The notes: generated by a model not told the origin, from the letters alone. Positions 2,219 to 46,794 are shown, counted from the stretch's first letter. The stretch is DNA of 64,000 nucleotides from an uncultured Candidatus Binatia bacterium (GCA_964291295.2 OZ219754.1:128001-192000), one strand, 5' to 3'. Program-made: numbers and translations.

Positions 2219-3250
2219 ATGGACCGACACGAACCGCGCGGCGTGGTGCACTGGATCGATCATTTCATCGTGGGCACCAATGACATGGTCACTTGGGTCG
2301 ACTGGGCCGTGAACGCCACCGGCATCACCCGGCGGCCGATTCGCGGCATTACCACCACGGCGCGAAAGAAGGATGTCCCGATCATGTGTTTCCTGTGGTG
2401 GGACAGCGAGTCCTGCCGCATCGGCGCCTTCCTGCAGCCCGAGGTCTACCCGGCCGCCAAGCCCCTGGGCGAGGACACGCCACGATGCGGATTCTACATC
2501 CGGCCCGAGGATGTGAACAGACACGTCAAGCGGCTCGAGCGCCACGCCATCCCGCACACCGGCCCGGTACGGACGGCGGACTGCGGCGAGGAGGGCACGG
2601 TGATCCACTTCGCCGACCCCGACGGCAACCAGTTCGAGTTCTGGGCGCCCGACCACATGCCGGAAGGGGCCATGGAGATATGCACGGCCGAGGGCGTCGG
2701 CCGCATCAGCCACGCGGTGTACGGCTCCCGGGATCTGGGCCGGACCGCCAGCTTTTTCGAACAGTACTGCGCCCTCAAGCCGGAGGTCGGCCCCAACGTC
2801 GCCGAGGGCAATCTGGTCCTGCGTCTGCACGCCGGCGGGCGGCTCATCTACAAGCTCGCCAACCAGGTCGACGAGCGCGTGGCCGGACACGGACCTTGGT
2901 GGGACATGCACACGGCGTTGACGGTGCGGGCGGAGGAGTTCATGCCCAACTACCGCCGGATGTGGGAAACTCTGCCAGAGGAGCGGCGGGCCAAGGAAGA
3001 GGACAACCTCTCGCTGGAGCAGGAGGACGCCCTGCCGGCCCGCACCGGTCTGCACCGGAGTCCGGTGGGTTACCGCTGGAAGGCCATGTTCGAGCGCGGC
3101 GACGAATTCTACGACTGGGACGGCCACGCCTTCCACTTCTTCGGCGGCAGGCCCGTCAAGGACGACGGTTCACTGGCCCTCTACACCATCGTGGAACAGG
3201 AAGACTATCTCACCGACGTCGCCGCGGAGGCGGAGAAGGCCCGCGCCTGA
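2219..3250 (+). CDS. Two-domain VOC/glyoxalase-family protein
   Basis: IDHF motif, FADPDGNQFEFW, ISHAVY and FYDWDGHAFHF motifs; GGAGG RBS upstream; high-GC3 codon usage. Confidence 0.8.
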   Translation: MDRHEPRGVVHWIDHFIVGTNDMVTWVDWAVNATGITRRPIRGITTTARKKDVPIMCFLWWDSESCRIGAFLQPEVYPAAKPLGEDTPRCGFYIRPEDVNRHVKRLERHAIPHTGPVRTADCGEEGTVIHFADPDGNQFEFWAPDHMPEGAMEICTAEGVGRISHAVYGSRDLGRTASFFEQYCALKPEVGPNVAEGNLVLRLHAGGRLIYKLANQVDERVAGHGPWWDMHTALTVRAEEFMPNYRRMWETLPEERRAKEEDNLSLEQEDALPARTGLHRSPVGYRWKAMFERGDEFYDWDGHAFHFFGGRPVKDDGSLALYTIVEQEDYLTDVAAEAEKARA

Positions 3251-3568
3251 GCCGCCGTCCTCCCACCACACCGTCACGGCCGCCGGTCACGCCCAGCGTG
3301 GCCCGGAGCGGTTCGCGAGCACCCGGAACGACCCGGTCCATCGGCCTGCGCTCCAGGCGCCGCTCGCAGGGCTGTCCCACCCTGTTTGCCGGGCCGACCT
3401 TCATTCCCTTGAAACAAGACAACTTCCATGGGCAATGGCCGTCACGCACGGACAGGCGTATGATGGCTGATTGAAACCTTCGGCTACAGCCGCAGCGGAC
3501 TCGGGGTTGTGCAGGCGCCGCTTCGCACGCCGTCACCGGGTGTACGCGGCCCGTGAAAGGACAGGGAC

Positions 3569-4213
3569 GTGACCGACCGGCACAGTCTCTCCGCGCTTCT
3601 CGACGGTGCCCGCGCCTTCCGGACGACCGAATACCGCGGCGCCGATTCCCTCATGGCCCGCCTGTCCATGGGCCAGGAGCCGGATGTCCTGGTGATCGCG
3701 TGCAGCGACTCCCGGGTGGATCCGGCGCTGGTTCTCGGCGCCCGGCCCGGGGACCTTTTCGTGGTACGCGTGGTGGCGAATCTGGTGCCGGCACGGCGCG
3801 CGGACGACACGATGGCCCACGGTGTGATGGCGGCGGTGGAATACGGGTCAAAGCGCTCGGGGTCTCGCATCTGGTGGTGTGCGGCCATTCCCACTGCGGC
3901 GGAATCAAGGCCGCGACGGACGCGGCGCGGGGAAGGGAACTGCCGCCGTTCGAGTGCCTGGGGCCGTGGCCGGCGCGTCGTTCCGGGAGGTGCTGGCGGA
4001 GAGCCCGGGGCCGGCCGCCCGGATGAGGAAGTGGCGGCCGCGGCGGAGCAGCGGTCGGTGCTCAAGTCTCTTGCCAACCTGCGGTCATACGGGTGGATTC
4101 AGGATCGGGTGGAAGGAAGCCGGCTCGCCCTGCACGGCTGGTGGTTCGATATCGATACCGGCCATCTGTGGATCGCGGACACCGCGATGGGGCTCTTCCG
4201 GCCGCTGGATTGA
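3569..4213 (+). pseudogene. Beta-class carbonic anhydrase with internal compensating frameshifts
   Basis: CSDSR and GDLFVVRxVANLV are in the main frame, but the zinc-ligand motif VVCGHSHCGG is in another frame after GAATACGGGTC (~3847). The frame is restored near 4010, giving the LHGWWFDIDTG C-terminus. Confidence 0.75.
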
Positions 4214-7290: not shown

Positions 7291-7526
7291 AGGTGGGGAG
7301 TCCCCACCGGCAACGGGCGGGATGCCGGCGGACCTCCTCTCGCGGCGTCGGGATCTGCGGATACGATGCAGCGAGTCCTCTCCGGTTGCGAAGGAAGCCG
7401 TCCCATACCCCAGACCATCATCCCTTCGTGCAGACAGATGGTCGCAGAAGCCGAAGCGGCGGTACCCGTACTGGACGTGCAGGAAGCGAGATTGCGCTGG
7501 CGGACGGTGCGGGTGTCGCTACGGGC

Positions 7527-7790
7527 TCAGCGCCCGGGTCTGGTGGCCAGCACCTCGTCGAGGCTCGCCGCCACCAGCACCGCCTCCGCCCAAGTCTCCA
7601 GTTCGGCGGCCGAGGCGCCGCGGATCCGCTCGCGGACCACATCCGGCACGTCACCGAAATGCAGTTCCAGAAGACGAAGGACAATTCCAGCCTGGCCCTC
7701 CGCGCGGCCTTCCTCCCGGCCCTCGCTCCGGCCCCGTTCGATTCCCTCAGCTCTTCCCTGTTCGATCCAGGCTTGCGCGACCGTTCCCAT
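7527..7790 (-). CDS. Putative internally initiated small Rpn C-terminal protein (RpnS-like), 87 aa
   Basis: GGAGG at 7800-7796 precedes an in-frame ATG at 7790 (MGTVAQAWIEQG...), the position where Rpn genes carry intragenic starts. Confidence 0.5.
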   Translation of the reverse strand: MGTVAQAWIEQGRAEGIERGRSEGREEGRAEGQAGIVLRLLELHFGDVPDVVRERIRGASAAELETWAEAVLVAASLDEVLATRPGR

Positions 7791-8509
7791 CAGCGCCTCC
7801 CAGCGGTCCGGCTTCGTCCGGCGCAGCGACGCCTCCAGCAAGGGCGGCGTCAGGTTCATGCGCTCGGCAATGTAACGCACGATATGACGCTCGAACGCGC
7901 TCCCCGCAACCGGCCCGCCCGTCATCTCGTCGAGAAGGTCGGGCGGTATCTCCTCGGCATAAACGACCCTGAGCGCCAGAAGCCCGGCCCGCACCTCGGG
8001 CGAGGCCGACAGCCGGCTTGGCGCGATCTCGCGTGCACCACATGGGCGAACTCCCTGACGAACGGCTCCAGCGCCTCGGGCGCGTCGATCATCCCCGGCA
8101 CCGAGCGCGGCGCCGTCCAGCGACCCCGGCCGTGGTAGAAGACCAGCGGGATGATCGCCGGCAGCCTGTCCCCGGCGACGCCATTCTCGATCTCGCGGCG
8201 CCAGATGTTGACCATGTATTTCAGGAGCTGGAGCGGCGTGTCGGCGTCGACCCGGCTCTTGTTCTCCAGGAGTACAGACAGGCGCGCATCGTGGCCGCTC
8301 CTCAGCCTGACCCGGAACAGCGCGTCGCACCGGGTCCGCGCCGCGTCCTCGTCGACGAAACCGCCCTCGACCGCCTCGGGCGGGGCCTCGGGGTCGAGGA
8401 GGGCGGCCACCTCTTGCGGCAGGTATTCCGCGAGCAGCGAAGCGGCGCGGGCCGGCTCGGAGACCAGCGCCCGGAACAGTGCATCGTGCGGCGTCGCCGG
8501 AAGGCTCAC
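7527..8509 (-). pseudogene. Rpn/YhgA-like PD-(D/E)xK nuclease (Transposase_31) with DUF4351-like tail, frameshifted near 8030
   Basis: HDALFRAL, RCDALF, LLENKS and IIPLVFYHG in ORF 7922-8509. The C-terminal EQGRAEGIERG..LLELHFG..LETWAEAVL part is in a different frame. Confidence 0.8.
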
Positions 8510-32547: not shown

Positions 32548-33491
32548 GCCCTCACCTTTGCCATCAGCTTCTCCAGGTCCTCGGGCTTCTCCAGATTCGA
32601 TGTGTCGATTCCCCGGTCGATGCGTCGAATGAGCCCGGACAGAACCCTCCTCGGACCCAGTTCGATCACCCGCCGGCAACCAAGCCCGGCCAGCGTCTTC
32701 ACCGACTCCTCCCACCGGACCGGGGCCACCACCTGTTGGACCAGAAGAGACTTGACACGCTCGGCGTCGGTGTTCAGCGCCGCCTCGACGTTGGTGACGA
32801 CTCCCACCCGGAGCGGCCGTACCCTGATGCCTTCCAGCACCTCCCGAAGCCCCTCCGCCGCCGGTGTCATCAGCGCGCAGTGGAACGGCGCGCTGAGGGT
32901 CAGCTCCACCACCTTCCGCGCACCCCGATCCCGGGCCAGTCGCGCCGCGCGCCGGACCGCTTCGCAGGCGCCCGAGACGACCACCTGCCTGCCGCCGTTC
33001 AGATTGGCCGGTGCCACCACTTCGCCCTGCCCGGCCTCCTGGCAGATCTCCCGGACCACCGCCTCCTCGAACCCCAGCACCGCGGCCATGCCCCCCTTGC
33101 CTTCGGGCACCGCCTGCTGCATCAGGCGGCCCCGCTCCCGCACCACCCGGACCGCATCCGGCAACGCCAGCGCCCCCGCGCACACCAGCGCACCGTATTC
33201 GCCCAGGCTGTGTCCGGCCACCCAGGCGGGCTCGACGCCGACCTTACTTTCCAGTACCCGCAAGGCGGCCACCGACACCGCCAGGATCGCCGGCTGCGTG
33301 TATTCCGTCCGGTTCAGTCGGGATTCCGGACCATCAAAACACAGCCCGCGAAGGCTCACGCCCAGCGCTTCGTCCGCCTCGTCGAACGTTGCCCTGGCCT
33401 CCGGAAAACGGTCGCACAACGCCCGTCCCATGCCCACGTACTGCGAACCCTGGCCGGGAAAGACGAACGCGGCGCGGCCGGTATCCGTCAT
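32544..33491 (-). CDS. fabD: Malonyl-CoA:ACP transacylase
   Basis: FPGQGSQ, GHSLGEY and SAPFH. Confidence 0.96.
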   Translation of the reverse strand: MTDTGRAAFVFPGQGSQYVGMGRALCDRFPEARATFDEADEALGVSLRGLCFDGPESRLNRTEYTQPAILAVSVAALRVLESKVGVEPAWVAGHSLGEYGALVCAGALALPDAVRVVRERGRLMQQAVPEGKGGMAAVLGFEEAVVREICQEAGQGEVVAPANLNGGRQVVVSGACEAVRRAARLARDRGARKVVELTLSAPFHCALMTPAAEGLREVLEGIRVRPLRVGVVTNVEAALNTDAERVKSLLVQQVVAPVRWEESVKTLAGLGCRRVIELGPRRVLSGLIRRIDRGIDTSNLEKPEDLEKLMAKVRA

Positions 33492-34483
33492 TCGCCCTGG
33501 TCCTCCAGCGCATTCACGATGTATCCGTTGATGTCCTGCGAAACGGCCTCGGACGCCACCCGGACGGCGTTCTTGATGGCCTCGGCCGAGGAGCCTCCGT
33601 GGGCGACGATGGCGACGCCGTTCAACCCCATCAGGGGAGCCCCTCCGTAGTGTGCATAATCAAGGCGGTCATAGGCCCGACCCAGGGCGCCCCGGCACAA
33701 CAGGTAGCCCAGGCGGCTGGACAGGCTGCTCCGGAACGCATCCTTCAGCACCGAGGAAACAAACTGTCCAATCCCTTCCATGGTCTTCAGCGCCACGTTG
33801 CCCGTGAACCCGTCACACACCACCACATGGGCCCGGCCATTGGTGATGTCCCGCCCTTCCACGTGGCCCATGAAGTTCAAGCCCGTGGAGCGGAGCTCGC
33901 GGACCGCCTCCCGTGTAAGATCGTTGCCCTTGCCGTCTTCTTCCCCGTTGCTCAGGATACCCACCCGGGGACTCGCGATCCCCAGGATCTTCTCCGCGTA
34001 GATGGCTCCCATGTGCGCGAACTGCACCAGTTGCCGCGGCTTGCAGTCGGTGTTGGCACCACCGTCCAGGAGCACGGTGCCGCCGGACAACGAGGGGCCC
34101 ACCGTCAGGATCGCGGGCCGGTCCACTCCGGGCAGGCGACCCAGCACGAACATGCCGATGGCCAGCATGGCACCGGAGTTGCCCGCGCTCACCAGCGCGT
34201 CCCCCTCGCCGGCCTTGAGCCGTTCGAAGGCCACTCTCATGGAGGCATCCTTCTGCTTCAGGGCGCGGCTGGGCGAGGCGCGCATGTCGATGGAGGAGGC
34301 GGCAGGGACGACGCGTACGACCGACGCATCGAACGAGTGACGCGACAACTCGGACTCCACCGCGTCCGACGCGCTCACCAGGGTTATGGCCACCCCGTAT
34401 TCCTCCGCAGCCCGCAGGGCCCCCCTTACGACAACGCCCGGGCCGTGGTCACCGCCCATCGCGTCAACGATCATCCGCCGCAT
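33488..34483 (-). CDS. plsX: Phosphate acyltransferase PlsX
   Basis: VDAMGGD, SAGNSGA, DGFTGNVALK and HGGS. Confidence 0.95.
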   Translation of the reverse strand: MRRMIVDAMGGDHGPGVVVRGALRAAEEYGVAITLVSASDAVESELSRHSFDASVVRVVPAASSIDMRASPSRALKQKDASMRVAFERLKAGEGDALVSAGNSGAMLAIGMFVLGRLPGVDRPAILTVGPSLSGGTVLLDGGANTDCKPRQLVQFAHMGAIYAEKILGIASPRVGILSNGEEDGKGNDLTREAVRELRSTGLNFMGHVEGRDITNGRAHVVVCDGFTGNVALKTMEGIGQFVSSVLKDAFRSSLSSRLGYLLCRGALGRAYDRLDYAHYGGAPLMGLNGVAIVAHGGSSAEAIKNAVRVASEAVSQDINGYIVNALEDQGE

Positions 34484-34515
34484 CACGGAGTGGACTGGAC
34501 AAGTGCGGCCGGCGT

Positions 34516-34692
34516 CTACTCGCCGGATGTCACGGACCGGGCCCTGTAGTAGCCGCAGCCGGCACAGACTCTGTGCCGCAAGGTGGCTGCACCGCAGCGC
34601 GGACATGTGATCCATCCAGGGGCGGGGACGGCGTCGTGGGACCGGCGCTTGTTGCGCTTGCTGTTGGAGGTTCTTCTTTTCGGTACGGGCAT
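34516..34692 (-). CDS. rpmF: 50S ribosomal protein L32
   Basis: MPVPKRRTS..RRSHD, CPRC..HRVCAGCGYY. Confidence 0.93.
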   Translation of the reverse strand: MPVPKRRTSNSKRNKRRSHDAVPAPGWITCPRCGAATLRHRVCAGCGYYRARSVTSGE

Positions 34693-34757
34693 CGCTTGTA
34701 TCCGTTCTGTCGGCTGGTTTCCGCAGACTCGCCACCCTCCACGGCCACCCTCCGCTG

Positions 34758-35300
34758 CTACCGGTCCAGTCGGAGGTTGCGGAAAATGGCCATGCGGGGA
34801 TCCCCCGAGGACACGCATCCACAGCCGATCCGATTCAACTCGGCACCACAGCCGGGGCACAGGCCGCGACAGCTTTCGCTGCACAGTGGCCGGAGGGGCA
34901 GGGCGAGCAGGGTCTGTTCGCGGACAAAGGGCGAGAGGTCGATGTCTTCTCCGGAGTAGAAGCTCAAACCCAGTTCGTCCGCCGTGAGTTCCATGTTCTT
35001 GTTAGTCGGAAGAGGGTCCGGAGTCAACACGAAGTCGAACGTTTTTTCAATGACGAACCGGAAGCTCTCCAGACAGCGGCTGCAATCCCCCTCCACCTCT
35101 CCCTCCAGCCCGCCGCGAAAAAAGATCTCCCGGCCCGACCGGTAGCAGGTCACCTGAACGTGGATCGGCGACGGGAAGCGTACCACCGAGACTCCATCGT
35201 CACCGATCTCGGGGATCTCGGAGAACCGGCTCTCCCGGGGAACGGTGTCGATCCGGTTGAGGGGAATGCGCAAGACGACTCCAGTTGCCGCGATCTTCAT
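34758..35300 (-). CDS. DUF177/YceD family protein
   Basis: CSRCL and PLCSESCRGLCPGCG..DPR motifs, upstream of rpmF; the real start may be the TTG at 35273. Confidence 0.9.
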   Translation of the reverse strand: MKIAATGVVLRIPLNRIDTVPRESRFSEIPEIGDDGVSVVRFPSPIHVQVTCYRSGREIFFRGGLEGEVEGDCSRCLESFRFVIEKTFDFVLTPDPLPTNKNMELTADELGLSFYSGEDIDLSPFVREQTLLALPLRPLCSESCRGLCPGCGAELNRIGCGCVSSGDPRMAIFRNLRLDR

Positions 35301-36955: not shown

Positions 36956-37870
36956 GTGAACGCGCGAGTGGGTTTGCTGCACGCCGTCGTGCTGGCCACG
37001 GTCGACTTGGCCACCAAGGTGCCGTCCGACCATCCCTCCGCCCGCAACCTGGGCACCGAGCGCATGGGTTCCGGCACCCTCATTGATCCCGCGGGCCTGA
37101 TCCTGACCGTCAACTACGTCGTCAACGGAGCCGAGGCCATCACCGTGACGCTGTCGGACGGGAAACAATACCCGGGCCGCCTGACGGCCCAGGACTTCGA
37201 CAGCGGCCTTGCCCTGGTCCACATCGACGCCGCCGATCTGCCTTTCCTCCGGCCGGCCGAAACCGTCACCGTCGGCCAGCCGGTGTTCATGGTGGCCAGC
37301 AATGGACAGCAACAGCGGCGGGTCAGCGACGGCAGCCTCACCTCCGTCGAAGGCTACGATGGGCAGTGGGAGTACCTGCTGGAACGGTCCATTCGGGTGA
37401 GCGCCTTCAATCCGGGATTCGGCGGCGGCACGCTGGCCGACTCCCGGGGCCGTCTCATGGGGGTGATCTCCCTCAACCTGAACGATGTCGGCAAGTTCAC
37501 GCTGGCCATCCCGGTGGAGTACTACCTTCGGGACGCGGAGGAGCTGAGACGGTTCGGAAGGGTGCGCAACCGGCCGCCGCGCGCTTGGCTCGGCCTCTAT
37601 TCACAGGCTCTGGAGGGCCATCTCCTGGTCACCGGCGTGACGCCGTCGGGACCCGCCGAGAAGTCCGGCCTGAAACAGGGCGACATCATCCTCGCGGTGG
37701 AGGGCCAGGAGGTGCAGACGCGGCCCCAACTCTACCGCGAGATCTGGAAGAAGCGTGCCGGGGACGCGGTCACCTTCCACGTGATCCGGGGCGACGGTTC
37801 GCAGGACGTTCAGGTGGCCAGCCGTGACCGCTGGGACTTCAACCAAGCCGGCGGGAAAGCCGGCGGCTGA
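36956..37870 (+). CDS. Trypsin-like (S1C/HtrA-like) + PDZ protein lacking the catalytic triad
   Basis: GSG..ILTVNYVV, DSGLALV and NPGFGGG occupy the triad positions; C-terminal PDZ (AWLGL..GPAEKSGLKQGD). Confidence 0.8.
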   Translation: MNARVGLLHAVVLATVDLATKVPSDHPSARNLGTERMGSGTLIDPAGLILTVNYVVNGAEAITVTLSDGKQYPGRLTAQDFDSGLALVHIDAADLPFLRPAETVTVGQPVFMVASNGQQQRRVSDGSLTSVEGYDGQWEYLLERSIRVSAFNPGFGGGTLADSRGRLMGVISLNLNDVGKFTLAIPVEYYLRDAEELRRFGRVRNRPPRAWLGLYSQALEGHLLVTGVTPSGPAEKSGLKQGDIILAVEGQEVQTRPQLYREIWKKRAGDAVTFHVIRGDGSQDVQVASRDRWDFNQAGGKAGG

Positions 37871-37880
37871 CCCGCGGCCC

Positions 37881-38366
37881 GTGAAAAATGCAACCCTCTG
37901 TCGTGTCATCTACGGCGACACGGACCAGATGGGGGTGGTCTACTACGCCAACTATCTCCGGTGGTTCGAGATCGGCAGAACGGAACTCCTGCGTCAGGCC
38001 GGGATTCCCTACGAGCGGGCGGAACGGGACGGCATCTTCTTCCCGGTCACCGAAGTGCAGTGCCGCTACCGCAAACCGGCCCGCTACGACGACCTGCTGA
38101 GGATCGAGACAACCGTCGAATCCCTCAGCCGTGTGGCGCTGAGATTCAACTACCGGATCGGCCTGGAAACCGGCCAAGTCACCCTCGCGTCGGGCTGGAC
38201 CAAGCATGCCTGCCTCAACCGCGACCACAAGCTGACCCGGCTGCCGGCCCGGTACGCCCGCGAGCTGGGACTCGGCACCCACCGGGACTCGGCACCGAGT
38301 AGCCGCCACCGTCAGGAAGACGGCGGAGACGCCTCCGCGGCAGGGTCGGACTCCGGACGGCAGTAG
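37881..38366 (+). CDS. YbgC/FadM-family acyl-CoA thioesterase
   Basis: RVIYGDTDQMGVVYYANYLRWFEIGRTE. Confidence 0.9.
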   Translation: MKNATLCRVIYGDTDQMGVVYYANYLRWFEIGRTELLRQAGIPYERAERDGIFFPVTEVQCRYRKPARYDDLLRIETTVESLSRVALRFNYRIGLETGQVTLASGWTKHACLNRDHKLTRLPARYARELGLGTHRDSAPSSRHRQEDGGDASAAGSDSGRQ

Positions 38367-39667
38367 ACCTCCGCCACCTGACGCAACAGCGCGATATTGT
38401 CGGCATGACCCGTCATCTTCGCGGTCACGCGGCCGCGCAGGGGGCGGCCGATGAGGGAAAAGTCCCCCATGATGTCCAGGATCTTGTGGCGGGCGAACTC
38501 GTCCTCGAACCGCAACTCGGTATTGAGGATCCTCTCATCGTCCACCAGGATGCAGTTGCCGAGGCGGCCGCCCTTGATCAGGCCCATCCGTTCGAGCTTC
38601 TCGAAGTCACGCAGGAAGCCGAAAGTCCGCGCCGGCGCGATCTCGTCGCGGAACGAGTCCGCGCCCTTGTGGACGTACGTATACTCCTGGGTTCCCACGG
38701 GGCTCGGATACTGCAGGCGATAGTGCACGGTGAAGCCCTCCGCCGGCTCGATGAGAATCTCTTTCGCCCCCTCCCCGACCATTCGAAGGGTCCGGTCGAT
38801 GACGATCTCCGCCCCTTGCCCATCCTGTACCTCCACGCCGGCCTCCTCCATCAACCCGCAGAACTCGATGGCAGAACCGTCCATGATGGGAATCTCGCCA
38901 TACATCTTTATCAACAGGTTGGTGATGCCGTACGCGTGAAGCACCGCCAGCAGATGCTCCACCGTACCCACCACCACGCCGTCGCGCTGCAACGACGTGG
39001 CGAAATCGGTGGAACGCACGTAGTCCAGATGGGCAGGCACGGTGACGTCGCCGGAGATCCCGCCGAAATGGATACCGCTGTTCTCGGGCAACGGATGCAG
39101 GATGACACCCGTGCTGACACCCGAATGCAGCCCCAGACCGCAGGCCACCACGCTTTTCCCCAGGGTCTTCTGCGGCACGCCGCTTCCGGCGCCGTGGCCG
39201 CCGAAACGCCGGGACGCTGCCACGACGCCGCCGGCCGACGCCCGACGCCCGTCGTCGCTCCCGGAAGCCTCGCGCCGCATGTCGCCGCAGCCGCGCTTGA
39301 CGGCGGCCAGCAGGCCGTCCAGCGAAAGCGGCTTCTCGATAAAGTCGAACGCACCGAGCTTGGTGGCCGTCACCGCGGTGTGGACACTGCCGTGGCCGGA
39401 GATCATGATGACGCGGGCCTCGGGGTGCTCTCGCCGGATCTGCTTGAGCAGTCCGATCCCGTCCCGCTCGGGCATCCACACGTCCAGGAGAATGACGTCG
39501 GGCTCTTCCCTGGCGACGATGCCCATGACCTCCGATCCATCCAGGGCGGAGACCACCCGGTAGCCCTCGTCGGTGAGAACCTCCCGCACGGTCTCCCGGA
39601 TGACGTCCTCGTCATCCACCACCAGCACGGTCCGTTGCGCCGCCTGCGCGTTCGATGAATCTTCCAT
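38312..39667 (-). CDS. lpxC: Response-regulator receiver domain fused to UDP-3-O-acyl-GlcNAc deacetylase (REC-LpxC)
   Basis: N-terminal VVDD..LLDVWMP..ISGHG..DFIEKP receiver domain, a ~40-aa linker, then QKTL..GLGLHSG, TVEHLL, EIPIMDGSA, IAPARTFGF, HKILD and GH LpxC motifs, all in one frame. Confidence 0.9.
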   Translation of the reverse strand: MEDSSNAQAAQRTVLVVDDEDVIRETVREVLTDEGYRVVSALDGSEVMGIVAREEPDVILLDVWMPERDGIGLLKQIRREHPEARVIMISGHGSVHTAVTATKLGAFDFIEKPLSLDGLLAAVKRGCGDMRREASGSDDGRRASAGGVVAASRRFGGHGAGSGVPQKTLGKSVVACGLGLHSGVSTGVILHPLPENSGIHFGGISGDVTVPAHLDYVRSTDFATSLQRDGVVVGTVEHLLAVLHAYGITNLLIKMYGEIPIMDGSAIEFCGLMEEAGVEVQDGQGAEIVIDRTLRMVGEGAKEILIEPAEGFTVHYRLQYPSPVGTQEYTYVHKGADSFRDEIAPARTFGFLRDFEKLERMGLIKGGRLGNCILVDDERILNTELRFEDEFARHKILDIMGDFSLIGRPLRGRVTAKMTGHADNIALLRQVAEVYCRPESDPAAEASPPSS

Positions 39668-39717
39668 GGTTCCTCTTCGTTCGGCGCCGCGCCCGGACAA
39701 GGGCACACCGGCGCCCT

Positions 39718-41973
39718 TCAGGACGCCTCGCTGGCGCGGACAGCCAGCGGCTCCGCCACCGGGAACTCCATGATGAAGCGGGTGCCGTGGGGCTGATTCG
39801 GACGCACGCGAACGTAGCCCCGGTGGTCGGCCACGATGGTCCCGACGATGGACAGGCCGAGTCCGGTGCCGTCTTTCTTGGTGGAGTAGTAGGGTTCGAA
39901 GACCCGGCCCCGGTTTTCCCGGGCGATGCCTTCCCCTTCGTCCGCCACCTCCAGGCGGACCATGCCGAAGGTCTCGTCGAACCGGATGGCGATCTCTATG
40001 CGCCCCTTGCCGTTGACGGAGGCGACGGCGTTGTCCAGCAGGTTGAACAGGGCGCGCTTGATCTGTTCCCGATCCAGCTCGACGGGTGGAATCGACGACT
40101 GTTCCGAGAAGTCGAAATCCACCTCCCGGTGCCCCTCCTTGAACAGAAACAGCGCTTCCCGGACCACTTCGTTGAGATCCTGCGGTGCGAGTTCCACGGT
40201 GGGCAGCCGCGCAAAGTTCGAAAACTCGTTCACCAGGTTCTTGAGCTCGTCCACCTGCCGGACGATGGTGGAGGTGCACTTGTCGAGTACCGCCCCGTCC
40301 CCGTCCAGGACATTCTCATAACGTTTGCGCAGGCGCTGCGCCGAGAGCTTGATGGGCGTCAGCGGATTCTTGATCTCGTGGGCGATGCGCCGCGCGGCTT
40401 CCCGCCACGCCTCCACGCGCTGGACCTTCTGGATCTCCGTGATATCCTCCATGAAGACCATGATGCCGAGCGTGCGGCCGTCGTCGTCCCGCAGGCTCGC
40501 GGCCACGGTCACCAGCGTCCGGTCGCCGTCCGGACCTCCGAGGCGGACACCCCGTTCCACTCCCGCACCGTCCTTCACCCGTTCGATGACTTCCAGCAGG
40601 GGCCGAAGCCCGGGTGTCCGCAACGCTTCCTCGTAGTGCCGGTGAAGCACGTCCGAAGCCCGTACGCCCAGAGTCTGTTCGGCGGCCTTGTTGACGATGG
40701 TCACCACGCCGGACCGGTCCACCGAGATGACCCCGGCCGTGATGTTGGCCAGCAGCGTCTCCATGTACCGCCGCCGCTGCTCCAATTCGGAGTTGGTACG
40801 CTTGAGATCCGCGGTCATCTGGTTGAAGGATGCCACCAGCGTGCTGATCTCGTCGCCGCCGCTGGCGTCGATGCGATAGTCCAGGTTGCCGTGCGAGACT
40901 TCGTGGGTCCCCTCCGCCAACTGCTGGATGGGCACGGTGATACCCTTGGCCAGGGCAAGCCCGAACCACGTCGCCGCAAAGATCATGACCAGCGTGATCA
41001 GCAGCAGAGTCAGCATGTAGGTCTGCTTCACCGGCTCCTTGAGAAGGGCCAGATGCTTGTGCTCCTCGTACGACCGGGATATCTGCTGCGCCTGCTTGCG
41101 GATGCTCTTGGGCACGAAATAGTCCACTACCACCGCGCCGATGATCCTGCGGCCGTCGCCGTGGACCGGCACCGCCCCCCGCAGCACGTCCCCCTCGCCC
41201 AGCGGCTGGGTCCGGGTCACCTCCAGTCCCCGCAGGGCGCTGTTCAGGAAATCCGCCTGCGGGCGGACCGTGACTCCGGTGGGCACCTGGTCGTTGAAGG
41301 CCTTCACCAGCGCGGCGCCGTCGGGCTTGTAGATCTCCACCGTGCCGAGATTGTATTCCCGCTGCTTGTCCTCCACCAGGCGCTTCAGGCCGTCGGACTT
41401 CTTCGGGTCGAACAGATCCTCGTCGCCGATGCGCTGGCTGAGCTGCCGGGCGAAGAAGAGCGCGTTGTCGGCGGAGTTCTGATAGTAGGTCCGGCTGATG
41501 TCGAGGGAGCCCTTGAGCGCGTTCACGACCTGCGAGTCGAACCACTTGTCGACGGAGCGCGTCACCAGGCTCTCGGCGATCAGGAACAGCATCACGGTGG
41601 GCACCAGCGAGATGCCGATGAAAGCCATCACCAGCCGGCTCTGAAGACGCGAGCCGAGGATGCGCCGGTGGCGGTCCAGCACCAGCTTCAGCAGGTTCCG
41701 CGACACCAGGAAGACCAGCAGCACCAGCAGAATGATGTTGATGTTGACCAGCAGGAAGAACGCGACGTTGCCGGTGAAGGCGTAGTCCGCCGAGACGTCG
41801 GGCAGAAGCTCCTCGAAGAACGCGAACAGCAGGATCATCAGGGCGGCGATGAGAATCACCCACCCTTCGCGCTTGCGCCGCTTCCGTTCCTGGGAGCGCA
41901 GCGTCTCCGCCCGCTCGTCGTTGCGCTTGACTGCGTTCGTCGGAGTGGACAAGACGGCATCCCCCCGCAACAC
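39718..41973 (-). CDS. ntrY: NtrY-like membrane sensor histidine kinase (HAMP-PAS-HisKA-HATPase)
   Basis: Three N-terminal TMs, RSVDKWF, HAMP, AWREAARRIAHEIKNPLTPI, NLLDNA and GTGLGL. Confidence 0.9.
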   Translation of the reverse strand: MLRGDAVLSTPTNAVKRNDERAETLRSQERKRRKREGWVILIAALMILLFAFFEELLPDVSADYAFTGNVAFFLLVNINIILLVLLVFLVSRNLLKLVLDRHRRILGSRLQSRLVMAFIGISLVPTVMLFLIAESLVTRSVDKWFDSQVVNALKGSLDISRTYYQNSADNALFFARQLSQRIGDEDLFDPKKSDGLKRLVEDKQREYNLGTVEIYKPDGAALVKAFNDQVPTGVTVRPQADFLNSALRGLEVTRTQPLGEGDVLRGAVPVHGDGRRIIGAVVVDYFVPKSIRKQAQQISRSYEEHKHLALLKEPVKQTYMLTLLLITLVMIFAATWFGLALAKGITVPIQQLAEGTHEVSHGNLDYRIDASGGDEISTLVASFNQMTADLKRTNSELEQRRRYMETLLANITAGVISVDRSGVVTIVNKAAEQTLGVRASDVLHRHYEEALRTPGLRPLLEVIERVKDGAGVERGVRLGGPDGDRTLVTVAASLRDDDGRTLGIMVFMEDITEIQKVQRVEAWREAARRIAHEIKNPLTPIKLSAQRLRKRYENVLDGDGAVLDKCTSTIVRQVDELKNLVNEFSNFARLPTVELAPQDLNEVVREALFLFKEGHREVDFDFSEQSSIPPVELDREQIKRALFNLLDNAVASVNGKGRIEIAIRFDETFGMVRLEVADEGEGIARENRGRVFEPYYSTKKDGTGLGLSIVGTIVADHRGYVRVRPNQPHGTRFIMEFPVAEPLAVRASEAS

Positions 41974-42047
41974 GTTCTATCGCTTCCACCGGTGAATCAC
42001 AAAGGCAATGAGACCCCTCGCCGGGTGAGGCCGCCGGATCTCGGCGC

Positions 42048-43085
42048 TTACAACAACCGTTTCTGCCGCTTCTCCCGCTCCATGCGCGTGGCGGACTGGG
42101 AGCGTCCCAGGTGTCGATAGGCCACGGGCGTGGCGACGCGGCCCTGCGGCCGGCGTTCGAGAAAGCCGGCCTGGATGAGGTACGGCTCGTAAGCGTCCTC
42201 CACGGTGCCTCGCTCCTCGCCGATGGCGGCCGCCAAGGTATCCAGCCCTACCGGCCCGCCGTCGAACTTGTCGATGATGGTGGTGAGGATGAGCGTATCC
42301 ATCTTGTCGCAGCCCTGCTCGTCCACCTCCAGCATTTCGAGAGCCCGGCACGCCACCGGACGGGTGATCCGGCCCTCGCCGTGGACCTCGGCATAGTCCC
42401 GAACCCGCCGCAGCAGGCGGTTGGCGATGCGCGGGGTTCCGCGGGAGCGGCGCGCGATCTCCATGAAACCCGTTTCTTCGCCGCCCACGCCCAGCAGCGA
42501 CGCGGACCGGGCCAGCAGCCGCACCAGCACCTCCGGCTCGTAGAAGTCGAGCCGGAACACGGCGCCGAACCGGTTGCGCAACGCCGGGGTCAGCAGGCCG
42601 GAACGGGTGGTGGCACCAATGAGCGTGAACCGCTTGACATCGAGCTTGATGGACTTGGCGCCGGGACCCTGCCCGATCATCACGTCCACCTGAAAGTCCT
42701 CCATGGCCGGGTACAGCACCTCCTCCACCACATGGTTGAGGCGGTGGATCTCGTCAATGAAGAGCACGTCTCCGGGGTCGAGATTGGTGAGCAGTGCGGC
42801 CAGATCGCCGGGGCGCTCGATGACCGGCCCGGAGGTGGGACGAATGTCCACGTCCATCTCCCGGGAGATGAGATGCGCCAGGGAGGTCTTGCCCAGACCC
42901 GGAGGGCCGTGGAACAGCAGATGGTCCAGCACGTCGCCGCGGCGTCGGGCCGCGGTGATGGCCACCTCCAGATTGGCCTTGACCCTGTCCTGTCCGAAGT
43001 ATTCGCTGAACCGCCGGGGCCGGAGGCTGGAGTCGTAGAGGACATCCTCCTCGGTGCCCGCGGGCGTTATGGTCCTGTCTTCCAT
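42048..43085 (-). CDS. ruvB: Holliday junction helicase RuvB
   Basis: [15 protein letters not shown] and [16 protein letters not shown]. Confidence 0.97.
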
Positions 43086-43098
43086 GAACCCGGTATGC

Positions 43099-43686
43099 CT
43101 AGCCGCTCAGCAGGCGCAAGGCGCCCTTGAGCACGGTCTCCAACTCGGCGGCGCCCTCCGCCAACACCTCGCGCACCGCCCGTTCCGCCTCCTGGCGGCG
43201 GTAGCCGAGATTCACCAGCGCCGACAACGCGTCGCCGCGCACCCCGGAACCGACCGCCACCGCCGGAGCGGTTTCCGCAGCCGTGTCGATCCGGTCGCGC
43301 AACTCCACGATCATGCGGTCGGCCAAGCGCCTGCCCACCCCGGGAATCGACACCAGCCGGGCGACGTCGCCCTGCCTCAGGGCGGCCAGCACTTCCCCGG
43401 CCGCCATGCCCGACAGGATGTTGAGCGCCAGCCGGGGGCCGATGCCCGACACCCCGATGAGCAGCGTGAAGGCCTGCTTCTCCGCAGGGTCGAAGAAGCC
43501 GAACAGCTGGAGCACGTCTTCCCGGACGTGGGTGTAGGCCAGCAGCGTCACGGGTTCCCCCACCTCGGGCAGCCGGTAGAAGACGCTGAGGGCGGTATGC
43601 AGGTGATAGCCGACGCCGCCGACGTCCACGACGACCTCGCCCGGCGCCTTGTGGTCCAGTGTTCCGCGAACCTTGGCGATCACCAC
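43099..43686 (-). CDS. ruvA: Holliday junction protein RuvA
   Basis: [24 protein letters not shown] and ALVNLGY. Confidence 0.95.
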
Positions 43687-43739
43687 GGGCCTCCCCCCGA
43701 CCCGGTGGCCGGAGCGGGCCGCTCGACGACCGGCATCCG

Positions 43740-44310
43740 TCAGCCCTTGCCGGCGGGAAGAGCATCGGCCTGCCAATGCAGCCCCCTCCCCCGCCGACCC
43801 GTTCCAGCCATGGCGCGGTACCCGTACAGGTGGCCGTGGCAGATGGCGGCCGCCAGGGCGTCCGAAGCATCCTCCTCGGGCTCGTCCGGCAACCCCAGGA
43901 TGGCCGTCACCATCTGCTGCATCTGACCCTTGCCCGCGTGCCCGTAACCGGTCAACGCCTTCTTGACCTGGACGGCGTTGTACTCCGAGACGGCGATGTC
44001 GCATGCCGCCGCGGCCACAAGAGCCACCCCGCGAACCTGCCCGAGCTTGAGCGCGCTCTGGACGTTGCGCGCCAGAAAGACCTTCTCAAGACTGACGTGT
44101 TCGGGCTCGTGCTCTTGTATGACCTTGGCCAGTTCCGTGAATATCCGGTGGAGGCGCCGGTCCTGGGATTGGCGGGTGGCGGTGCGCACGGTGCCGTGGG
44201 CGACATGTTGCAAGCGGACGCCGTCCGCCCGGATCACGCCCCAGCCGGTCTTGAGGGTTCCGGGGTCTATGCCCAGAATGGTTTCGATCTTTCCTTCTCC
44301 GGCGACGTCA
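43740..44310 (-). CDS. ruvC: Crossover junction endodeoxyribonuclease RuvC (start uncertain)
   Basis: ILGIDPG, EKVF, VKKALTGYG.A.K.Q and DASDALAAAICH. Confidence 0.93.
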
Positions 44311-45054
44311 ACCAGCCTGCTCGAGAATGTCGTCCGGGATGTCGAAGTTCGCCGCGACGCTTTGCACATCGTCGTGGTCCTCGAGGTCCTCGGTGAGGCT
44401 GAGGGTCTGCTCGGCCTCCTTCCCGCCCAGCGTCGTGGTGCTCCTGGGAATCCGGGTCACCTCGGCCGACACCACCGGGATTTTCCCGTTCTCCAGACTC
44501 TCCCGGACCGCAGCGAAGTCCTCGGGCCGGGTCACGATCTCGAACACGTCGCCGCTCTCGGTGACGTCCTCGGCGCCGGCCTCCAGGGCGAGCCCCAGGA
44601 GCGCCTCTTCCTCCGCAGCCTCCCGGGACACGACAAACAGGCCCTTGCTGTCGAACATCCAGGCCACGCAGCCCGTCTCTCCCAGGTTGCCGCCGTGCTT
44701 GTGGAACAGCCGCCGGATGTCCGACACCGTGCGGTTCCGGTTGTCGGTCAGAACCTGCACCATGAAGGCCACACCGCCGGGACCGTAGCCCTCGTAGCTG
44801 ACCTCTTCGTAGGAGACGCCCTCAAGCTCGCCGGTGCCCTTCTTGATGGCGCGCTCGATGTTGTCGTTGGGCATGCTGTTGTCACGGGCCGTCTGGACGG
44901 CGGTGCGCAGGCGCGGATTGGCCGCGAGATCTCCTCCCCCCATGCGGGCGGCCACGGTGATCTCCTTGATGAACTTGCTGAAGAGCTTGCCGCGCCGAGC
45001 GTCCTTGACAGCCTTCTTGTGCTTGATGGAACTCCATTTCGAATGTCCGGACAT
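44308..45054 (-). CDS. YebC/PmpR family protein
   Basis: [22 protein letters not shown] and TDNRNRT. Confidence 0.96.
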
Positions 45055-45669
45055 GACGCGACACGCTCCTCGAACAGGACTGGACCCATGGCCGGCGGGA
45101 CCGCCGAAAAACGGGACCGACCGGCGGGACCGCCGGCAAAACGGCCGCCCCGACTCGGTTCCCCGGCAATTCGGCTCCCGGAACCCGGGATCCTTGCACC
45201 TGGCTCATCGGCGCACACGGGAAAAATACCACAATTCGCGCCGCCCCGTAAACGAAACCGTCCGGCAGCCCGGGCTGAAGACGCGTATGGCGGCGTCGGG
45301 ATCACGATGACGACCGGGACAGCCGGCGCGCGCCTGCCCATTCGGATTGACGGCGATGCGGTGATCCCGGCCGTGCGGGGGCCGGAGAAAGCGGCCGGGA
45401 AACGGCGAGAACAGGAGATCAAGTCTCGGTGGAAGTAGTACAGATCAAGGAGAGCCCGGCGTCACATCCCGTACAGGCACGAAGCCGGACAGGCACGAAT
45501 GCCCGACAGACACGGAAACCATCCCGGAGCGGTTCGATCAAGGAGGGAGGTCAACATCGTCGAGGATGCCTTGTGTCAGTCGCTCCGCCGCCGGGCTTCG
45601 CTCCGGGAGACCGGAAACGGGAGGCATGAGCCGCCCGTCCGTCCTCATCAGCCATCGCCAGGTTCACGA

Positions 45670-46794
45670 TCAGAAGAAAAAGTCGAAATCGTCCTCTGTC
45701 AGAATGAAGGGAGCTTCCGCGACAATCTCTATCTTCCAGGTCTTGAAGGTCTCGGTTTTTTCGTCCAAGGCGATGATCGCCGCGTTCGCTCCATGGTACG
45801 TGATATAAAGATCGCCGAATTCGGTGATGTCGTCCTTGTCTATCCTGATCCTGTCCCCCGATCCCCAATCCTTGATCGTGTCAAACCCGCTGTCCTCGGC
45901 GAATATGAAAATATCGTTATCGCTCTCGCCGGACATGACGGAGCCGGTCCGGGGGCCGCCGTAAAGGGTGTCGTCGCCCTCGCCGCCTATGATGAAATCA
46001 TCACCATGCCCGCCCCATATCGTATCGTTGCCGACCCCGCCGTGCAGCTCGTCGACGCCCGCACCGCCGTCCATCTCGTCGTCGCCGTTCTGGCCATACA
46101 GGTAGTCGGTGCCATCATCACCGTACATCTCGTCGTCGCCCTCGCCGCCGTACAGGTTGTCACCGCCCGCGCCGCCACGCATCTCGTCGACGCCCTTGCC
46201 GCCCTCCATGATGTCGTCGCCCTCGTTCCCCTCCATCTCGTCGTCGCCCTCGCCGCCGTCCATCTCGTCTTTGTCCGCGCCACCATACATCTTGTCCTTG
46301 CCCTTGCCGCCCTCCATGGTGTCGTCGCCCTCGTTCCCCTCCATCTTGTCGTCGCCCTCGCCACCGTCCATCTCGTCGTCGCCCGCACCACCATACATCT
46401 TGTCCTTGCCCTTGCCGCCCTCCATGATGTCGTCGCCCTCGTTCCCCTCCATCTTGTCGTTGCCGTCATTGCCGTAGACGTGGTCGACGCCCTTGCCGCC
46501 GTAGACCTCGTCGTCTCCCGCGCCGCCATAGACGTGGTCTTTGCCCTCGTCGCCGTAGACCTTGTCGTTGCCATCGTCGCCGTAGACGTGATCGTCGCCC
46601 TCGTCGCCGGATACGGAATCGTCACCCTCATCACCATAAAGGTAATCGCCGTGTCCACCGCCCCGGATTACGTCATTGCCGGCACGACCATATATTATGT
46701 TTCCTCGTTGAGGATCTCCGATCAGGTCGTCGCCTCGGTCGTCGGATCCGGTGAAATCGTCGCCGGGGGTTCCTGACAAGCGCTTGTATGTCAT
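45670..46794 (-). CDS. RTX Ca-binding repeat protein (Met-rich nonapeptides)
   Basis: More than 25 GGxGxDxMx/GxxGxDxVx repeats including ~108-bp internal duplications; ends in DFDFFF; GGAGG RBS. Confidence 0.85.
   Translation of the reverse strand: MTYKRLSGTPGDDFTGSDDRGDDLIGDPQRGNIIYGRAGNDVIRGGGHGDYLYGDEGDDSVSGDEGDDHVYGDDGNDKVYGDEGKDHVYGGAGDDEVYGGKGVDHVYGNDGNDKMEGNEGDDIMEGGKGKDKMYGGAGDDEMDGGEGDDKMEGNEGDDTMEGGKGKDKMYGGADKDEMDGGEGDDEMEGNEGDDIMEGGKGVDEMRGGAGGDNLYGGEGDDEMYGDDGTDYLYGQNGDDEMDGGAGVDELHGGVGNDTIWGGHGDDFIIGGEGDDTLYGGPRTGSVMSGESDNDIFIFAEDSGFDTIKDWGSGDRIRIDKDDITEFGDLYITYHGANAAIIALDEKTETFKTWKIEIVAEAPFILTEDDFDFFF

Follow-up and report, generated by a model that had tools for sequence, protein, structure and literature searches.

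The stretch of DNA analysed here, called the window throughout, comprises 64,000 nucleotides from an uncultured Candidatus Binatia bacterium (GCA_964291295.2 OZ219754.1:128001-192000), and its minus strand carries a gene in which a response-regulator receiver (REC) domain is joined in frame to a complete LpxC, directly behind the gene of an NtrY-like sensor histidine kinase. LpxC commits the cell to lipid A synthesis; it is the control point of lipopolysaccharide (LPS) synthesis and a long-standing antibiotic target. We consider it likely that the fused protein is the housekeeping LpxC of the cell with a phosphorylatable receiver attached, that the cognate NtrY-like kinase phosphorylates residue D62 of this receiver, that the phosphorylation state sets LpxC activity, and that the protein arose by fusion of a regulator to the enzyme. 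The architecture had first been noticed in a reading of the sequence without database searches (the sequence-only reading), which also proposed that LPS flux is set by phosphorylation of the enzyme itself. The observation was confirmed as real, and the interpretation as a whole was partly supported. New beyond that reading is an evolutionary series leading from a free lpxC accompanied by an NtrC-type regulator, through REC/AAA+/LpxC proteins, to the REC/LpxC form found in the window.

The fusion gene occupies positions 38312..39667 (minus strand) as a single open reading frame (ORF) of 451 amino acids that runs from the ATG at 39667 to the stop codon at 38312-38314, which is included in these coordinates, and a GAGGA ribosome-binding site lies 6 nt 5′ of the ATG. 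Two Pfam families were matched: Response_reg at residues 14–124 (E 3.4e-32, 111.3 bits against a cut-off of 30.2) and LpxC (PF03331) at residues 166–432 (E 3.7e-80, 269.7 bits against a cut-off of 27). The latter match covers positions 1–267 of the 268-position profile, so the LpxC domain of the fusion is complete, and the protein was also recognized by TIGR00325, the NCBI equivalog model of lpxC (254.2 bits against a cut-off of 187.25). The Pfam scan of the 451 residues found neither an AAA+ nor a helix-turn-helix (HTH) domain and no third domain, which bears out the earlier description of a receiver and a full LpxC in one frame without AAA+ or HTH modules. The best receiver-only NCBIfam match was NtrX (NF051870) with 120 bits against a cut-off of 600, covering profile positions 3–126 of 452, and the LpxC-FabZ/FabA model NF009667 matched only the LpxC part. 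Judged from these matches, the fusion is a descendant of the NtrX/NtrC-type regulator family, yet not a member of it, as it is without AAA+ and HTH domains and stays below the NF051870 cut-off.

Site conservation was read from an alignment of 51 fusions with 49–83% identity. In the receiver domain (residues 14–124, positions 39296..39628, minus strand) the acid pocket D18/D19, the phospho-acceptor D62 (39482-39484), S90, the aromatic switch F109 and K112 were invariant in all 51 fusions, and the α4-β5-α5 face (residues 95–120) was strongly conserved. The same invariance was found in the LpxC deacetylase domain (residues 166–432, positions 38372..39172, minus strand) for E237-H238, T348-F349, H394-K395-x-x-D398, D402 and H421, which we take to be the zinc ligands (His, His, Asp) and the catalytic Glu, His, Asp and Thr. 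Both the phospho-site and the EH, HKxxD and GH motifs, described as intact from the sequence, are thus present in every fusion of the alignment. Over its entire length the LpxC part could be aligned with the solved Pseudomonas and E. coli LpxC (approximately 1e-51), and the EH, HKxxD and GH motifs of the solved Pseudomonas enzyme line up with the fusion residues. Deacetylase activity on UDP-3-O-acyl-GlcNAc is predicted. The solved receivers nearest to that of the fusion were 4d6x and 5m7n, both Brucella NtrX.

The two domains are connected by an unconserved low-complexity linker (residues 127–165, positions 39173..39289, minus strand), which holds an in-frame GTG at 39178. A Gly/Ala/Arg linker of about 40 residues had been proposed; the linker stood, with its length corrected to 39 residues and its composition to one rich in A, G, R, S and P, an enrichment seen across the fusions. 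Among the 51 aligned proteins its length varied between 30 and 62 residues without sequence conservation, and its net charge ranged from −6 to +10, being positive in 36 of them; the idea that the linker is a conserved basic membrane-binding segment was rejected in general on the basis of these charges. In the AlphaFold2 model of the fusion (predicted local distance difference test score, pLDDT, 81.5; predicted template modelling score, pTM, 0.76) residues 130–161 had pLDDT values below 50, consistent with a disordered linker, and the unconserved C-terminal tail was also modelled as disordered. A complex prediction for LpxC residues 160–440 and receiver residues 8–130 gave a score of 0.00, which speaks neither for nor against docking of the two domains.

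The architecture is not unique to this assembly. Both Pfam domains were present in 120/120 of the best protein clusters (59–84% identity), which, where named at all, are labelled merely 'LpxC', and the protein Atlas contained 17 clusters with REC and LpxC, most often from Candidatus Binatota. All 40 relatives from the same order (3 families, 10 genera) matched the fusion, 39 of them with one full-length frame, and in the remaining genome (G031) it was split into two pieces that lie on separate contigs. Of 151 genomes sampled evenly from the class, 146 matched; a single frame covering about residues 10–433 was found in 138, and eight gave partial rows only. Six of these eight (G170, G080, G148, G134, G120 and G057) had pieces spanning or adjoining the junction that were frameshifted or cut by a contig end, G097 proved to be fused once its locus was fetched, and the row of G147 was cut by a contig end. 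One of the 146 matching rows, G117, is flagged as unpublished, and no result depends on it. No free LpxC (approximately 300 amino acids) appeared in any row of the 151-genome sample, and the five genomes without a match were 78–99% complete. Two rows of the class that showed the LpxC part only were fetched: in G097 the fusion was in frame, and in G057 the receiver was split by a frameshift. These two genomes belong to one genus, in which the fusion receiver of G057 (L100, G057:C17) and the kinase of G097 (L101, G097:C19) are each split over two frames, either by assembly frameshifts or by decay of the system in that genus.

The even phylum sample comprised 201 genomes searched with a match threshold of E 1e-40. 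An LpxC of the fused clade was found in 48 of them (26 full-length rows and 22 rows of the LpxC part), approximately 133 had free LpxC only, and 20 were without a match at this threshold. The possibility that the 'LpxC-only' rows represent free paralogues of the fused clade was rejected, as in 13/13 of the rows fetched out of the 22 a receiver was situated upstream in frame (7 short and 6 long forms, see below). Free LpxC genes of 40–41% identity were located at G212:C33:20147-20965 and G372:C232:4643-5455, in two genomes that also hold the fused form; a transitional state, a paralogue or contamination could explain them. The distribution search for Response_reg plus LpxC thus established that the fusion is fixed across the whole class and is found beyond it, in other lineages.

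The genome that includes the window amounts to 3.70 Mb in 3 contigs and is 99.1% complete. PF03331 had a single match in it, the fusion gene, which was confirmed by tblastn, so no other lpxC was found by either method, and LpxB, LpxK and LpxD are present in the same genome. Since the fusion is the sole PF03331 match and accompanies these three proteins, the fused protein is the housekeeping LpxC of the cell and the pathway enzyme of an organism making lipid A. PF18073, the LapB zinc-ribbon model, had no match in this genome, a result that is weakly informative as the model has only 28 positions and also matches Gram-positive control genomes.

The kinase gene (39718..41973, minus strand) encodes 751 amino acids and ends, as the sequence-only reading stated, 50 bp before the start of the fusion gene. 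This spacer (39668..39717, minus strand) contains the GAGGA ribosome-binding site, and a promoter and terminator scan of positions 37800-45600 predicted just one promoter-like site, which lies on the wrong strand, and not a single terminator, the kinase–fusion gap included. The kinase matched NtrY_N (33 bits against a cut-off of 23), HAMP, PAS, HisKA and HATPase_c, all above the Pfam cut-offs, and weakly sCache_3_2 (30 bits against 28). Its sequence suggests that the N-terminal region forms three membrane helices, which are followed by a Cache-like loop of approximately 180 residues outside the cytoplasm (at about residues 138–318), a fourth helix and the HAMP domain, in this order. The 25 best NCBIfam matches of the kinase did not include an NtrY equivalog; the top ones were the LIC_11548 family and AtoS, far below their cut-offs.

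The linkage of fusion and kinase is conserved. An orthologous kinase is encoded directly 5′ of the fusion, on the same strand, in 20/20 class genomes from 16 families, and these orthologues are 41–52% identical to the kinase of the window over nearly the full length. Among the related loci compared (designated L), the kinase also stands directly upstream of the fusion in L002–L010, and ruvB precedes the kinase in L002–L009. In the window ruvB (42048..43085, minus strand, identified by Pfam) is the conserved upstream neighbour and serves as synteny anchor, and the ORFs upstream of it on the same strand were read from their translations as ruvA, ruvC and a gene of the YebC family. The signalling set of the genome consists of five HisKA kinases and seven receivers. 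Three of the other four kinases have an adjacent receiver, and the fourth has one approximately 3.5 kb away. This repertoire (sites given on C1: 167296, 1293526, 1569358, 1852717, 2053732, 2997093 and 3340668) is very small for a 3.7-Mb genome, and one of the five kinases is apparently devoted to LpxC. Fusions without an adjacent kinase were found in L011–L014 (Syntrophorhabdus and Thermodesulfobacteriota titles) and in the Nitrospinota loci L019 and L066. All five of the genomes with an unlinked fusion that were searched hold exactly one NtrY-like kinase elsewhere, and no receiver lies closer to it than 1.5 kb. A conserved pair that has become unlinked would be expected to leave this pattern, a kinase and a receiver-LpxC that are both orphans.

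The origin of the fusion can be traced in a synteny set of 80 related loci from species genomes. In 22 of the 80, a free lpxC is followed by the orthologous kinase and then by a regulator, and the lpxC is 36–41%, the kinase 38–46% and the receiver of the regulator 46–54% identical to those of the window; the closest other receiver encoded in the genome of the window reaches only 43% identity to that of the fusion. These unfused loci come from Syntrophales, Desulfobacterales, Geobacteraceae, Desulfuromonas and others, and ruvB stands in front in ten of them. Their gene order matches the arrangement in S. fumaroxidans, where lpxC is reported directly upstream of the orthologous regulator operon in the accessible part of a study on D. 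vulgaris regulators (Rajeev et al. 2011, PMC3333781). The earlier proposal that the fusion occupies the slot normally held by NtrX behind an NtrY-like kinase agrees with this synteny. The regulator was scanned in three of the 22 loci (L017, L030 and L041) and in two loci with the kinase–regulator pair without lpxC (L033 and L016), and all five were enhancer-binding proteins composed of REC, Sigma54_activat (222–250 bits), an AAA+ lid and HTH_8.

Long fused forms of 668–837 amino acids, in which REC is followed by a weak Sigma54_activat match (60–97 bits), an AAA+ lid and LpxC, occur in Nitrospinota (L019:1278-3281 and L066:4630-6828) and in six genomes of the window's phylum (L087–L092, among them L087:2207-4393, L090:2042-4552, L091:2022-4283 and L092:496-2622), and an NtrY-like kinase lies directly upstream in three of these six. 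Compared with true enhancer-binding proteins, the long forms have kept Walker A (GExGTGKE) but lost GAFTGA and the Walker-B glutamate, while the phospho-chemistry residues of the receiver are kept in them too. In four of them the stretch just before LpxC aligns with the HTH_8 helix-turn-helix, which was undetected by Pfam. The long forms may be ATP-binding yet inactive oligomerization scaffolds carrying LpxC. In the short forms L012 and L014 the linker opens with a heptad-like segment, LEHRKLRQESKRLQRLLKENEK, at the position of the REC/AAA+ linker helix. In the tree of the LpxC domain, which was also made in a 39-row version, the 33 fused proteins formed one clade against 11 free ones (Shimodaira–Hasegawa-like approximate likelihood-ratio test, SH-aLRT, 99), with the long forms at an unresolved base and the short forms in two groups (support 91 and 89). 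Read most simply, these data would mean that a complete regulator was fused to LpxC once, that its ATPase then decayed and that the AAA+/HTH module was deleted afterwards, tentatively at least twice. The regulator fused to the enzyme probably controlled lpxC transcription beforehand, and this series argues more strongly than any other result that an older transcriptional control of lpxC passed to the fusion.

Considering these results, it is strongly suggested by the sequences that phosphorylation controls the enzyme. The NtrY-like membrane kinase would be the cognate partner of the fused receiver; it would probably sense an envelope or redox cue, either with the extracytoplasmic Cache-like domain or with the PAS domain in the cytoplasm, and phosphorylate D62, and the phosphorylation state of the receiver would set the amount of LpxC activity. 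This could occur by CheB-type docking of the receiver on the enzyme, altered by phosphorylation, or by phosphorylation-driven dimerization of the receiver through its α4-β5-α5 face. Docking or dimerization is favoured, and a rigid allosteric relay appears unlikely, because the tether is long, disordered and unconserved. That phosphorylation activates LpxC is a tentative guess by analogy, to which we lean because the ancestral enhancer-binding protein would be an activator. To a fuller claim we lean only slightly: that a dedicated phosphorelay adjusts LPS flux on a time scale of seconds, with neither transcription nor proteolysis involved, and that this relay arose from the enhancer-binding regulator of lpxC itself through loss of GAFTGA and the Walker-B glutamate and at least two losses of the module, with living intermediates of each step.

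Several points weigh against control by phosphorylation of the fused receiver as outlined above. Phosphotransfer and any effect of phosphorylation on activity, stability or localization are predictions from sequence. The tether of 30–62 residues is conserved neither in sequence nor in charge, so no conserved coupling element is visible in it. To our knowledge, the solved LpxC structures are monomers, and the route from receiver dimerization to catalysis is then not obvious. G212 and G372 hold a free LpxC in addition to the fused one, so the fusion need not always be the sole source of activity. The orthology of the kinase/regulator pair to DVU2931/DVU2934 rests on a synteny remark in the accessible part of PMC3333781. 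Moreover, the alphaproteobacterial NtrYX lowers lpxC expression according to the parts of PMC7240162 and PMC12444477 available to us, which is opposite to the guessed activation.

Alternative explanations differ greatly in how well they agree with the data. Metagenomic-type data are prone to errors that could join a receiver gene to lpxC by misassembly or frameshift, and L100 shows a frameshifted receiver; nevertheless, no direct support for such an artefact was found, and its probability is negligible. Contigs (Logan) from two runs of one study span the junction at 39180-39300, where read coverage had to be confirmed, without insertion or deletion: the contig of the first run is identical to the window over 38200-40100 and may be its source, while that of the second run covers 38200-39956 with a single substitution at 39305. 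Together with the same architecture in 120/120 best clusters, in 138/151 class genomes and in 80 loci of many independent assemblies, this refutes the artefact for practical purposes. It is also very unlikely that a free LpxC is translated from the GTG at 39178 in the organism of the window, the fused form being a minor or separate species, as the sequence-only reading cautioned. The codon exists in frame, as V164, and marks the ancestral lpxC start, because V164 aligns with residue 2 of the Pseudomonas, or classical, LpxC; a weak GGAAG lies 4 nt 5′ of it. However, a start codon within three codons of the QKTL motif was found in only 3 of the 13 fused genes whose DNA was read (GTG in the window, ATG in L005 and TTG in L012), the others carrying CTG, ATA, CTC, ATC, CTT or TTA at that site, none of the 13 has a Shine-Dalgarno sequence there, and the frame stays open across the variable linker in every genome examined. 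Separate translation of LpxC is not a conserved feature.

The remaining two explanations accept the fused protein and assign another role to its receiver. Pseudo-receivers exist in other proteins, and loss of function within this protein has a precedent in the decayed AAA+ of the long forms, so the receiver might be a non-signalling leftover that acts as a folding, solubility or constitutive dimerization module in an LpxC regulated elsewhere. This is improbable in view of the phospho-chemistry residues, which do not vary among the 51 fusions, even at 49% identity, and persist in the long forms, and of the kinase, which has been kept directly upstream in 20/20 class genomes and as a single orphan in 5/5 genomes with a relocated fusion. 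The main rival is control of stability or localization: the receiver would determine the amount or location of LpxC, its phosphorylation exposing or hiding a degron or an adaptor- or membrane-binding surface, in replacement of FtsH/LapB-type proteolysis. We regard it as possible though doubtful. Disordered segments such as the modelled linker and C-terminal tail would suit protease access; these segments are unconserved, however, so no conserved degron is visible, and no adaptor gene is conserved beside the fusion in the compared loci. PF18073 had no match in the 99%-complete genome, but a 28-position model that matches Gram-positive controls too makes this silence weak. In the studied organisms LpxC is controlled mainly through its level or its binding partners, as far as the accessible part of a 2025 review goes (PMC12444477), which is in line with such a role.

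Some further genes of the window and of the compared loci deserve mention. An HtrA-like protease (Trypsin_2 and PDZ) is encoded at 36956-37870 (plus strand) and overlaps by 47 bp with a 4HBT-family thioesterase gene (37824-38366, plus strand), which converges on the fusion gene and recurs approximately 2 kb downstream of the fusion in L003, L004 and L006. The region 33488-35300 (minus strand) was read by eye from its translations as a plsX-like gene, a small L32-like ORF and a DUF177-like ORF, which would constitute a lipid-synthesis cluster a few kb from the fusion. At 45670-46794 (minus strand) a 374-residue ORF consists almost entirely of GGxGxD/GDDxxxG units and resembles the RTX-type repeat proteins that bind calcium; a long repetitive open frame is present on the opposite strand as well. 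In the short-form lineage of L012 and L014 the orphan fusion adjoins a sigma-70-family factor of approximately 340 residues and an Hsp20 gene (L012:669-1676 and 3242-4048; L014:3215-5863 and 7330-8223), and downstream of it lies a convergent gene for an Asp/Glu racemase, possibly the peptidoglycan enzyme MurI.

The regulation of LpxC outside Enterobacteriaceae and Pseudomonas is described as an open question in the 2025 review (PMC12444477), whose accessible part treats FtsH/LapB/YejM, MurA, Ght, Lon, NtrYX and ChvGI as regulators of LpxC or lipid A and contains neither the word 'receiver' nor 'fusion'. No paper describing a receiver–LpxC protein was found in the literature searched, a scope outside which subscription journals and supplements lay; thus the architecture is present in databases, and no study of it was found there. 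If the proposed phosphorylation control is true, it would add to the modes of LpxC control the first one that carries a two-component signal to the enzyme itself, and the fusion would be a response regulator whose enzymatic output is of a new kind. The fusion is fixed in the class, some fused form is present in about one quarter of the phylum sample, and relatives in Nitrospinota have one as well, which suggests that a whole class may steer outer-membrane lipid synthesis by signalling straight to LpxC. The series from free lpxC through long to short fused forms would be a rare, well-sampled case of a transcriptional circuit turned post-translational. The system also supports the idea of NtrY-type kinases as envelope-homeostasis sensors.

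Several known systems resemble the fusion in part. The NtrY–NtrX pair of alphaproteobacteria shares the kinase architecture (NtrY_N, HAMP, PAS, HisKA and HATPase), and NtrX receivers are the closest to that of the fusion. According to the accessible text of both sources, NtrYX lowers lpxC transcription in two alphaproteobacteria, and in R. sphaeroides and C. crescentus it has an effect on lpxC expression and on the level of LPS (Lemmer et al. 2020, PMC7240162; 2025 JBC review, PMC12444477). However, NtrX binds DNA, has a regulon of dozens of genes and controls lpxC transcriptionally, indirectly in R. sphaeroides, whereas the fusion is without AAA+ and HTH domains and the enzyme itself carries the receiver. 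Closer in dedication is DVU2931/DVU2934 of D. vulgaris, from the same broad bacterial group, a two-component system whose regulator DVU2934 has lpxC as its single target in the accessible part of Rajeev et al. 2011 (PMC3333781); there the control is transcriptional through a DNA-binding regulator, and the kinship to the kinase of the window is indicated by the synteny remark only. Post-translational control at LpxC itself is exerted by FtsH/LapB/YejM in E. coli, MurA in P. aeruginosa and Ght in N. meningitidis (PMC12444477, part available to us), which are separate partners, while the regulatory module of the fusion is within the enzyme and apparently wired to a histidine kinase. Besides the receiver fusion, one natural fusion of LpxC is known, LpxC-FabZ/FabA, which is mentioned in a preprint (bioRxiv 10.1101/2025.10.16.682753). 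It combines two enzymes that share a substrate pool and is without a signalling domain.

The ancestral scaffold is represented by the NtrC-family enhancer-binding proteins (REC, AAA+, HTH_8), the architecture of the unfused neighbours of the orthologous kinase. Unlike these, the long forms lost GAFTGA and the Walker-B glutamate, and the form in the window lost the whole module, because of which it cannot act on sigma-54. The CheB methylesterase consists of a receiver, a flexible linker and an enzyme, and its receiver blocks the active site until phosphorylated. The output of the fusion differs in being a zinc deacetylase of lipid A synthesis, its receiver is of NtrC/NtrX and not of CheY/CheB ancestry, and docking of this receiver on LpxC is a proposal only. 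Nevertheless, with an N-terminal receiver, a disordered tether, a hydrolytic enzyme and a dedicated kinase in common, CheB appears to be the best mechanistic template for the receiver–LpxC fusion.

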